The notes under the pieces are model-generated. The model saw only the letters and a list, made by a program, of their open reading frames with translations, did not search any database and had not been told where the DNA came from. 34,082 bases of DNA from Fidelibacterota bacterium (GTDB lineage: Bacteria > Fidelibacterota > Marinisomatia > SCGC-AAA003-L08 > D37C17), in the NCBI GenBank assembly GCA_018671635.1, contig JABHHG010000152.1:1-34082 (forward strand), written 5' to 3'. Below are positions 21,835-33,119 of this stretch, piece after piece. Numbering within the stretch: the stretch's first letter is position 1; every line of letters begins with the position of its first letter. The translations under genes were made by a program, and so were the position numbers.

Positions 21835-23352
21835 TTAATTTTCAGCCAAAATTACATTTAGTAACTGCACCACATCCAGAACATTCAACTGGCCATCACT
21901 ATTTAAATCACCATTGTAAAACTGATTATCATCTGGAAATTGTTGTTGTAATACAAATTGAACCAAGATGACCACATCCAAAACATTGATTTCATCGTCA
22001 TTATTTACATCTCCATTGGGGAGGCTGGACGATTCAAATGTATAGAATGGATTTACCACATTGGGATTCCCTGAATATCCTGAAGTGACCAATAAAAATT
22101 GAGACCCATTTGACGGTGGTGAAATCTGAAAAGAAGTCTCCTCGTTCTCAATTATTAAAGGGATGGATGATTCTAATGTATCTCCAGTAATAGTAAGGAC
22201 GTTAGTGGTGAACACAATCGGATTCGGTGTAAAAATATTCAAAGTGGTATCCACAGATGGTAACTCCAAAATATATGTAGAGCCCCACTCTGTTCGGATG
22301 TTCAAAATTTCGTCTGTGAGGGGTGTGGTGGTAGATGTACAATATTGATTAGCCTCCTCAAAATATCGATTTGGCATGGCTCTCCCCCCTGTAAAATATC
22401 GCCAAATTCCATATTCAGTATAAGCCTCAGAAAGAGTAACATCTACATTTTCTAAACCCTCAACGGCATCACTATATACTCGAAACATATCTACACCTTC
22501 TGTGGTAGCAGTAAGTCCATAATCATCCCACAAGGTTTTTATAATTGATGAATCGCCATAAGCCTCCACCAAAAACTTTAACCAAAGTGCGCCTCGATAT
22601 TGATACAAATCCGCACCTGAATTTAAATCATAATCAGGATAAGTAAGTGGTGTGGTCACATTGCAATTACCCAACATAGTCTGAAGGTGAACGGCGTTGG
22701 GGTACACTACATTTTCAATATATGATGCAGACTCTTCAAAAAACCACGCATTATATGAATATTCCCCAACTGAGCCTGTAGTAGATACGGCATAGGCTAT
22801 TTGAATAGCATGATGCAACTCATGAGCGATGGCATAATATCCCCATGAAGGATAATTCTCATGCATATTCGCCATTGTGGATAAAAATATGTAACTTGTT
22901 CTCCCTGCGGTATAAGGCTCAATATTATGGATTCTATCCGGAATTGCAAATCCGGGACCATGCGGGGTAAGATAAATGTCATAGCGAGAATCCCCTCCAA
23001 AATTTATACAGTGATTTGCATCTAACTCATCCGTAATTGATTCATCGCAATCGGGGGGAGGTAAAGTCCAGCCTCTTTGTTGCAATATGATGGCTGAGTA
23101 TTCAAATTCAATTAGTACCGATTCAGCATAAGTTACATTCGTTTGGGGATTCAACCACTCACCCTGATGATTAATTGAGTCATCTTCAGCAATCGTAAAA
23201 TGGACTCTAAAATGTGTGCTGTCAATAACCTCATGTTGTGAAAATATAACCCGATTATAATCACGAGTATTCTCTAATATACATGATAATGGCAATCTCT
23301 CAGCCTGAATGAACTGTGCTGAAATCAAGATAATTATTGCTATTCTATACAT
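21835..23352 (-). CDS. secreted putative zinc metalloprotease (HExxH) with a C-terminal double dockerin-like repeat
   Basis: Signal peptide present. AIAHELHHAIQ contains HExxH. C-terminal DVNNDDEINVLDVV and DLNSDGQLNVLDVV repeats. ATG 23352 overlaps the upstream TGA stop (TGATG); the ORF-track start is GTG 23355. Confidence 0.8.
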   Translation of the reverse strand: MYRIAIIILISAQFIQAERLPLSCILENTRDYNRVIFSQHEVIDSTHFRVHFTIAEDDSINHQGEWLNPQTNVTYAESVLIEFEYSAIILQQRGWTLPPPDCDESITDELDANHCINFGGDSRYDIYLTPHGPGFAIPDRIHNIEPYTAGRTSYIFLSTMANMHENYPSWGYYAIAHELHHAIQIAYAVSTTGSVGEYSYNAWFFEESASYIENVVYPNAVHLQTMLGNCNVTTPLTYPDYDLNSGADLYQYRGALWLKFLVEAYGDSSIIKTLWDDYGLTATTEGVDMFRVYSDAVEGLENVDVTLSEAYTEYGIWRYFTGGRAMPNRYFEEANQYCTSTTTPLTDEILNIRTEWGSTYILELPSVDTTLNIFTPNPIVFTTNVLTITGDTLESSIPLIIENEETSFQISPPSNGSQFLLVTSGYSGNPNVVNPFYTFESSSLPNGDVNNDDEINVLDVVILVQFVLQQQFPDDNQFYNGDLNSDGQLNVLDVVQLLNVILAEN

Positions 23353-23885
23353 CACGTCCCTAAAATTAAATTTACTAATTGAACAATATCTAACACGTTT
23401 AAAATTTCATCTCCATACAAATCACTGGCATAAAATTCACACTCATCGGGGATGCTACTCCCCAATATATAATTCATTAAATTTACAATATCCAATACAT
23501 TGGTAACCGTGTCGTGGTTCACATCACCTACAGAATAATCCGTACAACTCCCAGATGTCAACTCATCCAAGACAGAATGCATCCACTCTGTATCAATTTC
23601 ATTATTGGCATATTTGAGGATACCCGATTGGTCTACAATAAAATCTCGTGGATAGGGTGAGCCATCATTAGGAAGGTAATAGTCTTGATATGTATCACCA
23701 CCTTGTACTCCACCCGAACTTCCTGGGTCAAATAAAATGGGAAATGTAAGGCTATTCTCCTCTACAAAATCATTAATTTGGTTTTGGTTGGATGTATTAA
23801 TTATGCCTAACACAATCACTTCATCCTGTGGATAAGACTGCCAAATAGTGGTTTCCATGTCCGATAACTCCGGACTACAAACGGG
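23352..23885 (-). CDS. 3' segment of the composite gene: remainder of a TlpA/redoxin-like thioredoxin fold plus a double dockerin-like repeat
   Basis: Same frame as ORF 23886..25106: nine sense codons (PVCSPELSD) link the TGA to the ORF-track Met at 23858. VIVLGII...TFPILFDPG...PRDFIVDQSGILKY is redoxin-like. DVNHDTVTNVLDIV and DLYGDEILNVLDIV are dockerin repeats. Confidence 0.75.
   Translation of the reverse strand, partial: PVCSPELSDMETTIWQSYPQDEVIVLGIINTSNQNQINDFVEENSLTFPILFDPGSSGGVQGGDTYQDYYLPNDGSPYPRDFIVDQSGILKYANNEIDTEWMHSVLDELTSGSCTDYSVGDVNHDTVTNVLDIVNLMNYILGSSIPDECEFYASDLYGDEILNVLDIVQLVNLILGT
23851..23882 (-). promoter_or_regulatory. SECIS-like stem-loop immediately 3' of the in-frame UGA
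   Basis: The mRNA reads UGA CCC GUUU GUA GUCCG GAGUUAU CGGAC AUGG AAAC. Lower stem GUUU/AAAC, internal loop, upper stem GUCCG/CGGAC. The 7-nt apical loop starts with G, 16 nt after the UGA. Confidence 0.45.
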
Positions 23886-23888
23886 TCA
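23886..23888 (-). other. in-frame TGA at the position of the first Cys of the redoxin CxxC motif: candidate selenocysteine codon (alternatively a nonsense mutation)
   Basis: GKIIVIAFFAPN-TGA-PVC aligns with the TlpA-type GKvvvlnFWAtW-C-pPC. Confidence 0.5.
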
Positions 23889-25106
23889 GTTTGGTGCAAA
23901 AAAGGCAATAACGATAATTTTGCCGAGTTCATCAGAAAGGCTGAACGAGCCGGTTCCATTGGCTACATAATCTAATTCAAAGTCAATGGCAAGCTCACCA
24001 ATATTGGCACCATCTATATTGCCGTTAGTCTCACACATAACCAATGGCTCGTCTGCATCATTGGTATAAATTCGATATACCCCCGCAGAATTGAGTGAAC
24101 TTGCATAATAAATAATCTCTACTATTTGACTCTCACCTGGTTGAAGTTGGCTTAGTTCATTTACAATTTCAAAATGGGGGTTGGTCGTATAATCATCCTC
24201 AATAATCAAAATAGAGCCACCATTATTTATAACTTCAAGAGATAATGAATATGAATCCCCATCATTCACAAAGGGATAGTTTAGCTCGAGAGTATTCAGG
24301 TCAATATCTGCACTCGCAATTTCACCAAACTCAAATGCTTGAACCGATGCCCATTCAGCTGAATAAATAAAATTATCTTTGGAGGCAATGGCCATAGTAC
24401 GGTTACCCGTATTTTTGTACCCTACCCAATTCAGATTTGAACCATCCCATTCTAAAACATCCACATTATCCCAATCAGAAACCGCTAATTTACCATCAAA
24501 TGGTGAAATTCGATTGGCCATCGTATTAGTGTCAAAATTATCTAAAAAAATAGGCAATTCAGAATTTGATAAATCATAAATATTCACGCCATCAGAACCA
24601 ATGGCCACATACATGTATGAGTCAATTATGGCAATATCTTTTACAGAATTTGAGGTTTCAACCATATTAAGATAAGTGGGATTTTCAGTATTACTCACAT
24701 CATAAATTTTTATATTTAGGTCATCTGCAATATAGGCATATCCATTTTGGAGGCGAACTCCCCAGGCATTTTCAGAAGGAATAGTAGATAGTAAATCTAG
24801 ATTATTGGGGTTGGAAATATCGAAGAGGAGTACCCCATCTTCATGGGCGGCAACCGCAAGAAAGTTTCCATCAGCATCTAAATTTTCTAGAATAAGTCCG
24901 TTGGTACCATTCACACTCCCCAAATTCTGTGGATTTGAAGGATTAGAAATATTGACCACGTATAGTCCATTTGAAGCGGTGAAGTAAGCATAATCATTGA
25001 TGGCTTCAACACAATTGGCTTTTGTGCCTTGGCCCAATGTGAAATGGTCTAAATGTACAAGTGAGCCATTTCCAGAAATATCATAAAACTCAATACCCTG
25101 AACCAT
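23886..25106 (-). CDS. 5' main segment of the composite gene: LVIVD-repeat beta-propeller plus an Ig-like module, entering a redoxin domain
   Basis: At least four LVIVD-type repeats (e.g. DYAYFTASNGLYVVNISNPSNP, GVLLFDISNPNN, GYAYIADDLNIKIYDVSNTENP, SYMYVAIGSDGVNIYDLSN). This ORF has no signal peptide of its own. Confidence 0.8.
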   Translation of the reverse strand: MVQGIEFYDISGNGSLVHLDHFTLGQGTKANCVEAINDYAYFTASNGLYVVNISNPSNPQNLGSVNGTNGLILENLDADGNFLAVAAHEDGVLLFDISNPNNLDLLSTIPSENAWGVRLQNGYAYIADDLNIKIYDVSNTENPTYLNMVETSNSVKDIAIIDSYMYVAIGSDGVNIYDLSNSELPIFLDNFDTNTMANRISPFDGKLAVSDWDNVDVLEWDGSNLNWVGYKNTGNRTMAIASKDNFIYSAEWASVQAFEFGEIASADIDLNTLELNYPFVNDGDSYSLSLEVINNGGSILIIEDDYTTNPHFEIVNELSQLQPGESQIVEIIYYASSLNSAGVYRIYTNDADEPLVMCETNGNIDGANIGELAIDFELDYVANGTGSFSLSDELGKIIVIAFFAPN

Positions 25107-25112
25107 GGCCGA

Positions 25113-25140
25113 AATGATTAGCGTATAATGATTAGCGTAT
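25113..25140. repeat. perfect 14-bp tandem duplication (AATGATTAGCGTAT x2) causing a frameshift
   Basis: Read directly: 25113-25126 equals 25127-25140. Removing one copy joins the 25264-start ORF in frame to MVQGIEFYD. Confidence 0.9.
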
Positions 25141-25264
25141 TGTCATAAACTTCCGCATCCAAAATATGATTGGCTTGGGGGTCATGGTAATCCGTTAATG
25201 ATAAATTCAGGGAAAAAACAACTGAACCCAACAAACCAACAATATATCCTCTTGATAACTCCAT
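25118..25264 (-). pseudogene. detached N-terminal fragment (signal peptide plus the start of the first propeller repeat) of the LVIVD/redoxin/dockerin gene
   Basis: The ORF reads MELSRGYIVGLLGSVVFSLNLSLTDYHDPQANHILDAEVYDNTLIIIR*, with AAGAGGA SD 9 nt upstream. It ends inside the 14-bp duplication. Confidence 0.6.
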
Positions 25265-25268
25265 CTTC

Positions 25269-25529
25269 TCATCCTCTTACGAACCTGAATTTAACCCTTT
25301 TTTTGCCTAATCCAAAATGATTAGCATATCGGTATTTCAGCATCTTTTTTTCTTTTTTATTGAGAGAGTGATGGTGGTGGATTACAACCAATGCAACATC
25401 ATATTGCCATTGTAAATCGGCCCGAACGGACTTTTCTTTTATAATGATTTCAGAGTTATGACCGTGATGATGGTAATGGACTGCGCATCCTGAAAAAAGA
25501 ATGGCAGTGATTAAAATATATAACTTCAA
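25269..25529 (-). CDS. small His-rich putative lipoprotein
   Basis: 86 aa, TTG start after AAGGAGG. Lipobox-like LFSGC. HYHHHGHN and HHHH tracts. Basic C-terminus. The next gene's ATG lies 5 nt downstream. Confidence 0.5.
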   Translation of the reverse strand: MKLYILITAILFSGCAVHYHHHGHNSEIIIKEKSVRADLQWQYDVALVVIHHHHSLNKKEKKMLKYRYANHFGLGKKRVKFRFVRG

Positions 25530-32734: not shown

Positions 32735-32759
32735 TAGCTATTCGCGATTAGCTTTTAGC
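32735..32759. repeat. left arm of the inverted repeat flanking the four-helix-bundle gene (TAGCTATTcgcgATTAGCTTTTAGC)
   Basis: ATTAGCTTTTAGC (32747-32759) is the exact reverse complement of GCTAAAAGCTAAT (33149-33161). TAGCTATT (32735-32742) pairs with AATAGCTA (33159-33166). Confidence 0.7.
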
Positions 32760-33119
32760 AATTAGCGAATCCTTAATTTTAGCAATCAATCCATTTAACA
32801 TTTTCTGCCCCTCAGTAAGATTCCAAAAAATTGGTTGCATTTCATTGGCTTTTGCCAAACGAGTATTAACAGTAATCTGAATTAATGTCTCTATTTCAAA
32901 TGCCGATCCCAAGGAAATTTCTAAAAATCTTTTGAAATCTTTTTCACTGGTTCTACTACATCCCTCAGCAATATTAGCAGGAATAGAAACACTTGCTCTT
33001 TGAATTTGACTTATCAACCCAAATCTTTCAGAGAAAGGTAATGTTTTTGTGAAATCATATGTAGAATTAACAATATCCATACCTAACTGCCATACTTTAA
33101 ATTCTTTATATTTTCTCAT
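32748..33119 (-). CDS. four-helix-bundle protein (23S rRNA intervening-sequence protein / Avd-like family)
   Basis: 123 aa. The FKVWQ...Y..T..LP..E+F.L..QI.RA..SI..NIAEG pattern is typical of the TIGR02436-type family. Confidence 0.85.

Follow-up and report, generated by a model that had tools for sequence, protein, structure and literature searches.

Described relatives and domain architecture

Redoxin-fold proteins with a UxxC motif, where U stands for selenocysteine (Sec), are a long-established textbook class of predicted bacterial selenoproteins, and the catalytic Cys of CxxC is the classic Sec/Cys site. In this study, a gene with an in-frame UGA at such a site was analyzed in a stretch of DNA of 34,082 nucleotides (nt), the whole of which is referred to as the window. 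The UGA was read as a Sec codon followed by a bacterial selenocysteine insertion sequence (bSECIS) element, a reading to which a probability of roughly 0.88 was assigned from sequence comparison. The two open reading frames (ORFs) that the UGA separates most likely form a single gene, whose product would be a selenoprotein secreted by a bacterium of the Marinimicrobia (SAR406).

The central selenoprotein claim has been on record since a 2008 catalogue, the selenoproteome of the Global Ocean Sampling (GOS) data, which was based on reads of ~1 kb (Zhang & Gladyshev 2008, PMC2398784). Under '#Prx-like 1' (UxxC), its Dataset S1 holds reads of the window family. Among these, JCVI_READ_1101868 is 89% identical over 146 amino acids (aa) to the window redoxin domain and has U at the Sec position, JCVI_READ_1054303 includes the dockerin and also has U at the Sec position, and JCVI_READ_724215 is a further relative (PMC2398784). 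The window protein has the AhpC-TSA domain (pfam00578) and the UxxC motif in common with GOS 'Prx-like 1', and its redoxin core is no different. With the TGA read through, PF00578 matched residues 417–547 across this codon (E 3e-16, with 59.9 bits where 26 are required), and the protein contains U-P-V-C. The initial annotation, which was made from the letters of the window, had stated that redoxin-like selenoproteins were reported from marine metagenomes, and the window family itself turned out to be in Dataset S1. The novelty that it implied was lost for the same reason, as the family was already catalogued as 'Prx-like 1' with an 89%-identical read.

As a selenoprotein call, the locus adds little. 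Its value is practical and modestly biological, and lies in the lineage, the architecture, the misannotation and the tension with an 'orphan SelD' class described below. An N-terminal LVIVD propeller, anchor swapping and an assignment to Marinimicrobia were not found in the literature searched, including the main text and supplementary files of PMC2398784. The full architecture, the Marinimicrobia assignment and a near-universal misannotation as two ORFs are apparently undescribed.

The features of the gene are listed below in the order of translation.

23352..25264, minus strand: whole selenoprotein gene, with the stop TGA at 23354..23352 and the true start ATG at 25264
25193..25264, minus strand: true start and signal-peptide-like N-terminus MELSRGYIVGLLGSVVFSLNLSLT, out of frame with the gene body in the window contig
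25113..25140, minus strand: 14-nt tandem duplication (ATACGCTAATCATT twice), a frameshift between signal peptide and gene body
24350..25106, minus strand: LVIVD-repeat beta-propeller, residues ~47–300 (PF08309, E 4.8e-15; Beta_propel; TIGR04312 choice-of-anchor B)
24057..24323, minus strand: immunoglobulin-like (Ig-like) beta-sandwich linker (choice-of-anchor D / HYDIN-ASH-like), residues ~310–398 (weak match to NF012200)
23568..24002, minus strand: Redoxin / AhpC-TSA thioredoxin-fold domain, residues ~417–561 (PF00578, PF08534, PDB sequence matches)
23877..23888, minus strand: UxxC redox motif U-P-V-C, aligned with the CxxC of StoA and 2LS5 and with FA[ST]WCPxC of Cys homologues
23886..23888, minus strand: in-frame UGA, predicted Sec, residue 455, first position of U-P-V-C
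23859..23875, minus strand: candidate bSECIS core hairpin of 17 nt (synonymous-site constraint, compensatory changes, bSECIS criteria), with the 5' arm GUCCG at 23875..23871, the loop GAGUUAU at 23870..23864 and the 3' arm CGGAC at 23863..23859
23361..23528, minus strand: C-terminal type I dockerin, residues 575–630 (PF00404, 25.7 bits, above the cut-off of 22.9)

The ORFs at 23886..25106 and 23352..23858 (minus strand) are in one frame and are split by a single TGA (23888..23886) and nine sense codons (PVCSPELSD), so that the read-through sequence around the TGA is ...GKIIVIAFFAPN-[TGA]-PVCSPELSDMETTIWQ... With one copy of the 14-nt repeat removed, the gene product consists of 454 aa, Sec and 177 aa (632 aa in total), and the domain order is signal peptide, LVIVD beta-propeller, Ig-like domain, redoxin and dockerin. 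The signal-peptide-like stretch after ATG 25264 reads MELSRGYIVGLLGSVVFSLNLSL...; its character was judged by eye from a charged stretch followed by a hydrophobic stretch. The Redoxin model PF08534 also matched across the TGA (E 2.9e-12), and the PDB sequence matches of this domain were StoA, ResA and thioredoxin-family proteins. In distant homologues, the Ig-like region matched HYDIN_VesB_CFA65-like_Ig, ASH and DUF1573. The initial annotation had described two same-frame ORFs separated by one TGA and nine sense codons, and a redoxin fused to an LVIVD propeller and a dockerin; the former was confirmed on the sequence, and all three domains gave Pfam matches. Its reading of the gene was right in joining the ORFs at the UGA, but it missed the 14-nt duplication and the true start at ATG 25264.

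The duplication was traced in ten contigs encoding an identical C-terminal protein. Only one of them had it, namely the contig of the window itself (L008, ERZ27237567 k141_497095). In five further contigs, which come from other samples and encode an identical C-terminal protein, the 14-mer occurs once and the ORF runs for 454 aa before the TGA; the same holds for a more distant relative (L001). As the duplication is private to one contig and the relatives have a single copy, the gene family is not decaying. The window copy would be either mis-assembled or a variant inactivated by loss of its signal peptide, and the duplication is independent of the UGA.

The position of the TGA was then compared with solved structures and full-length Cys proteins. 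In the alignment to StoA (3ERW, FWTSWCPPCKKEL) and 2LS5 (FTASWCGVCRKEM), the TGA falls on the N-terminal Cys of CxxC. When 1.84 billion cluster representatives were searched exhaustively and without a profile, uninterrupted Cys homologues of 570–700 aa were obtained (P0176, P0185, P0189, P0199, P0241, P0243, P0250 and P0254). The read-through window protein is collinear with P0185 over 492 aa (29% identity, E 4e-55), with the TGA opposite Cys. As it aligns collinearly with an uninterrupted protein, the two ORFs were taken as one gene. These Cys-containing proteins have the same order of propeller, Ig-like domain and C-terminal redoxin as the window protein, but differ from it in having Cys at the Sec position (FA[ST]W-C-PxC), no dockerin and a composition of high-GC type, as judged by eye. 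The placement of the TGA at the nucleophilic Cys of a TlpA/redoxin-type motif, as initially proposed, agrees with both the StoA/2LS5 alignment and the Cys homologues.

TlpA, ResA and StoA (cd02966; PDB 3ERW, 3C71 and 4NMU) and the window protein have in common the thioredoxin fold, the motif at the start of helix 1 and an extracytoplasmic setting, which is predicted for the window protein. However, the window protein has Sec for the first Cys, and the Trp conserved before the motif is replaced by N, M, G or L in Marinimicrobia. Moreover, its redoxin is the third module of a 632-aa propeller-dockerin protein, whereas TlpA, ResA and StoA are small membrane-anchored proteins of cytochrome c maturation. 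The NCBIfam equivalogs of ResA and StoA (NF002854 and NF041202) remained below their cut-offs (34 against 170 bits for ResA and 30.6 against 210 bits for StoA). By sequence, the window protein has the ResA/StoA fold and motif in common with them but is not a member. A true peroxiredoxin (AhpC/Prx) was also considered and rejected. The published motif of Prx selenoproteins is TxxU, and the window sequence FFAPN-U-PVC has no Thr three residues before Sec and does not show PxxxTxxC / TxxU.

Conservation of the UGA and the adjacent hairpin

At the DNA level, TGA was found at the aligned codon in 134 of 134 relatives examined, comprising 45 species representatives, 80 metagenome contigs and 9 distant loci. 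The window and the 45 GTDB species representatives, mostly metagenome-assembled genomes (MAGs) labelled Candidatus (Neo)Marinimicrobiota, gave 46 species-level sequences with 58–88% aa identity, and all 46 had the TGA. The codon was likewise present in all 80 further metagenome contigs and in all 9 distant-relative loci, which were reached by profile search and exact-protein look-ups and have 27–55% identity, 41–71% GC and a dockerin, a type IX secretion system (T9SS) tail or no tail. In the metagenome scan, the first alignment (A5) was too diverse for the search pattern, and the second gave close relatives only.

The reading frame was retained on both sides of the codon. Where the upstream sequence sufficed (39 genomes), an intact ORF with a median of 467 codons preceded the TGA, and in almost all of these genomes the part after the TGA measured 173–261 codons. 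No conserved restart codon was seen, since ATG followed the TGA in only 29 of the 46 species-level sequences; the other 17 had TTT, TTA, ATT or CTN. The alignment of homologues that had been suggested as a check of the Sec reading thus gave TGA in every relative and Cys in the full-length homologues. Independent decay of the two halves, which would have spoken against this reading, was not seen, and both halves were open and conserved.

The hairpin starts 11 nt after the UGA, its loop G is the 16th nt, and GUU lies at +18..+20. In a codon alignment of the 46 species, the hairpin codons AGT, CCG, GAG and TCG had zero codon entropy. None of 54 control columns (conserved, degenerate amino acid) was invariant; their entropy was 0.35 bits at the lowest and 1.31 bits on average. 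The closing pair varies between G-C, G-U and A-U with pairing kept, and the variable base of TTA/TTG falls in the loop. Stem pair 4 changes from C-G to U-A in three distinct high-GC distant sequences and is broken in none; this change stems from the replacement of Pro-Glu-Leu-Ser by Leu-Glu-Phe-Pro or Leu-Glu-Phe-Ser. A compensatory change from G-C to A-U was also seen in the stem. Among 24 diverse sequences, 96.7% of the cells were paired, compared with at most 58% when the 3' partner was slid, and the observed covariation score was reached by none of 500 shuffles. The loop GAGUU is invariant across lineages of 41–71% GC. Judged by these comparisons, the hairpin is under constraint at the RNA level.

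The published bSECIS criteria (PMC13188914) are a loop of 3–9 nt, an upper stem of 4–16 bp, G in the first two loop positions, a spacing of 16–37 nt and a minimum free energy (MFE) of at most -7.5 kcal/mol. The hairpin agrees with every one of them: it has a loop of 7 nt (GAGUUAU) or 5 nt (AGUUA), in which G takes the first or second position, a stem of 5–6 bp, a spacing of 16 nt and an MFE of -11.0 kcal/mol. Similar to the bSECIS consensus (E. coli fdhF paradigm), it is a stem-loop in the coding sequence directly 3' of the UGA, with G and then U starting a small apical loop. Unlike the consensus, it is very short (5–6 bp), has no conserved lower stem and has a spacing at the lower limit of the model. 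A lower stem GUUU/AAAC is part of the minimum-energy fold of the window, but was rejected, as pair 9-36, the third of this stem, cannot form in 27 of the 43 distinct sequences. Conservation was also missing from the middle U-G/A-U pairs, and the unchanged pairs sit at positions fixed by the amino-acid sequence.

Thus, the stem-loop of the initial annotation stood in its GUCCG/CGGAC stem, its GAGUUAU loop and the G 16 nt after the UGA, while its GUUU/AAAC lower stem was not conserved. The stated fit to bacterial SECIS geometry was borne out by the published criteria, and the test of whether the hairpin co-varies found the compensatory change at pair 4 in distant lineages. Its core reading, a Sec-UGA in UxxC with a SECIS hairpin, is in line with the 134 TGA codons, the Cys homologues and the RNA-level constraint.

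Under this reading, the UGA at 23888..23886 would be decoded as Sec at residue 455. In analogy to the E. coli paradigm, the hairpin would serve as a SECIS element and bring SelB-GTP-Sec-tRNA(Sec) to the ribosome when the A site is occupied by the UGA. Sec would then replace the nucleophilic N-terminal Cys of the redoxin active site in U-P-V-C. Because Sec would take the place of the nucleophilic Cys in a TlpA/redoxin-type fold, the expected product is a thiol/selenol:disulfide oxidoreductase or a peroxidase-like reductase.

Alternative explanations of the UGA

Several observations weigh against Sec decoding and were considered together. The window copy itself has an N-terminal frameshift. The segment from the UGA to +38 folds at -11.0 kcal/mol with a z value of only -1.0, and 29 of 200 shuffles fold as well; the single-sequence folding z values were -0.36 (71 nt) and -1.0 (41 nt). 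The significance of the hairpin therefore comes from the comparison with relatives, as its folding energy alone is no better than chance. The stem is mostly invariant within Marinimicrobia, and the covariation comes from few lineages. No Rfam SECIS family was matched, either with the whole window at the gathering threshold or with 23780-23960 at E <= 10, and the matches obtained in those searches were tRNA-Leu and a chance snoRNA match only; the check with SECIS covariance models that had been suggested for this region thus ended without a SECIS match. ARAGORN found no tRNA-Sec in the window and 50 loci, and tblastn with E. coli SelA, SelB and SelD found none of them in 666 kb of related loci, but both searches covered local flanks only and are uninformative; selA, selB and selD are likewise absent from the window. 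Finally, Peng et al. 2016 (PMC5029168, Table 1) described three SAR406 single-cell genomes as 'orphan SelD', a class in which SelD was detected but SelA, SelB and selenoprotein genes were not. If this class reflected complete genomes, canonical Sec decoding would be contradicted.

Single-cell genomes are generally incomplete, and the components missing from those of SAR406 were assumed to be an effect of this. SelD can be placed in the lineage because it was reported in the SAR406 single-cell genomes (PMC5029168). The conserved selenoprotein genes in Marinimicrobia MAGs are at odds with the 'orphan SelD' class. Apart from the 'orphan SelD' table, no description of selenoproteins in Marinimicrobia, Marinisomatota or SAR406 was found in the literature searched. 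Should complete genomes truly have no selA, selB and selC, the conserved UGA and the GAGUU hairpin would signal a non-canonical recoding route.

A second candidate selenoprotein was found ~2 kb upstream of the propeller-redoxin gene in three Marinimicrobia contigs; it is absent from the window.

L029:770-1726: second candidate, TGA at 956
L030:793-1713: second candidate, TGA at 952
L098:252-1091: second candidate, TGA at 423

This protein of ~300 aa combines a signal peptide and a VYFGHYN-U-G[LT]C motif with a Kazal-like module rich in Cys and with a dockerin, and it matches the GOS 'Prx-like 2' family (PMC2398784). Its in-frame TGA is conserved and is followed by a hairpin CCCG-GUU-CGGG with GUU at +18..+20 after the UGA, as in the window gene. 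'Prx-like 2' and the window protein are alike in being encoded by Marinimicrobia and in having a signal peptide, UxxC, a dockerin and GUU at +18..+20. However, the domain of 'Prx-like 2' is unrelated to the window redoxin, with no AhpC/Redoxin Pfam match and with the Kazal-like module. As this second gene also has a conserved TGA and a matching hairpin spacing, Sec decoding by these organisms is independently supported.

The evidence was also weighed against four other explanations of the UGA. The locus might hold two separate genes, with a stop at the UGA and an independent start of the redoxin-dockerin part at ATG 23858. Gene callers split the locus in this manner in nearly all database entries listed, and in the window the ATG lies 9 codons after the TGA. 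However, the downstream ORF would be left without strand beta-1 and the first active-site residue, the Pfam domain starts 38 residues before the TGA, and no codons of the gene are better conserved than the nine between TGA and ATG. Of the 46 species, 17 lack the ATG, and the Cys homologues are single uninterrupted proteins. Two genes were thus regarded as very unlikely. Read-through without selenium is an unlikely explanation as well. Here, the UGA would be read as Trp or Cys by a near-cognate or suppressor tRNA with stimulation by the hairpin, or Sec would be inserted by a route without SelA/SelB, as the reported 'orphan SelD' genomes without SelA or SelB might indicate. This is countered by the location of the UGA at the catalytic Cys of CxxC, the classic Sec/Cys site, where Trp at the nucleophile position would inactivate the enzyme, and by a hairpin that agrees with all bSECIS criteria including G(U) in the loop and the spacing. 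The second UxxC family of the lineage has a matching hairpin geometry, and incomplete single-cell genomes are assumed to lie behind 'orphan SelD'.

A pseudogene, in which the TGA would be a nonsense mutation or a sequencing error of TGT/TGC in a decaying gene, requires a one-base change from TGY to TGA only, and the window contig does have the frameshifting 14-nt duplication near the gene start. It was nonetheless judged highly improbable, as all 134 independent relatives, drawn from many samples and assemblers, had the TGA, both halves are open and conserved, and the duplication is confined to a single contig. An alternative genetic code (table 4 or 25) would make TGA a Trp or Gly codon genome-wide, and some database entries do show W at the codon. 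However, TGA ends 7 of the 35 ORFs listed in the window, among them those of SufE and TetR, whose Pfam domains are complete, and it is also the stop codon in 11 of 44 orthologues of the selenoprotein gene. No other credible in-frame TGA was seen in the 34-kb window, and the homologues have Cys at the position rather than Trp or Gly. This explanation was given a negligible probability. The same view had been taken in the initial annotation, on the grounds that TGA ends SufE, the TetR gene and the selenoprotein gene itself, which proved correct.

Lineage, cellular location and neighboring genes

Among the explanations above, a Sec-UGA with a bSECIS element was preferred, and its implications for the lineage were considered. 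With a TGA-bearing gene in 45 species representatives, the family is assignable to Marinimicrobia/SAR406 on sequence grounds, and it was argued from the same 45 genomes that Marinimicrobia would decode Sec. Marinimicrobia are among the most abundant deep-ocean bacteria. One locus, L035 (CAXRJK010000097.1), is a 4.6-kb contig labelled as a Winogradskyella sp. MAG. Over the first 80 residues of its translation, the gene on this contig does not differ from the copy of Marinimicrobia UBA2986 (L034), and the contig is probably a mis-binned one from Marinimicrobia.

The C-terminal anchor is swapped between lineages (L017-L063, L145-L156), while the UxxC redoxin core is constant. The anchor variants were a dockerin, a T9SS Por_Secre_tail (...KLILLK), a '...EPGNGYWLRSSG...' domain and none (104–110-aa forms); in the L017 orthologue, a 601-codon tail ends in a T9SS-type sequence. 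From the signal peptide and the dockerin or T9SS tails, the surface display put forward in the initial annotation is plausible. The dockerin, or the T9SS tail in other lineages, would anchor the protein outside the cytoplasm, probably at the cell surface, and the propeller is probably a substrate- or partner-binding module. It is tentatively suggested, as a possibility of less than even probability, that Marinimicrobia keep a conserved extracellular, anchor-displayed selenoproteome, consisting of the propeller-redoxin with its dockerin, T9SS or other tail by lineage and of the Prx-like 2 / Kazal / dockerin protein. An extracytoplasmic selenoenzyme, as suggested by the architecture, would bear on the selenium demand of the dark ocean and on extracellular redox chemistry. 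In addition, the hairpin is compact (17 nt) and its GAGUU loop invariant, which makes it a clean candidate when the SelB specificity of the lineage is to be defined.

In essentially every public record examined, the gene was split in two ORFs or translated with W. More than 1,200 homologues were obtained from 5.8 billion proteins, and among the 120 listed, nearly all were 160–178-aa ORFs starting right after the TGA. The few listed homologues that span the codon read ...FFAPN-W-PVCSPE..., which reflects code-4 gene calling. One of them, with 168 aa, is named 'redoxin domain-containing protein' by NCBI. Since there is no NCBIfam model for the family, the gene keeps being missed by annotation pipelines.

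The selenoprotein gene adjoins further ORFs in the window. Its stop and the GTG start of the following gene share 4 nt (GTGA; window 23352-23355), and this following gene encodes a 506-aa DUF6055 / peptidase-MA-like protein that is also dockerin-terminated. The 4-nt overlap with a second dockerin gene suggests that dockerin proteins are co-expressed. In the relative L001, a 1012-aa Reprolysin/Laminin_G_3 gene (L001:10507-13545) is inserted between the selenoprotein gene and the DUF6055 gene. Directly upstream of the selenoprotein gene, an 86-aa ORF (window 25269-25529, minus strand) has a lipoprotein-like N-terminus and His-rich runs (HYHHHGH, HHHH); it gave no Pfam match, and a 90-aa ORF occupies its place in relatives. 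Elsewhere in the window, a 123-aa gene (32748-33119, minus strand) lies within the suf operon between sufB and sufC, and its L001 counterpart of 135 aa matches PF05635 (23S rRNA intervening-sequence protein).

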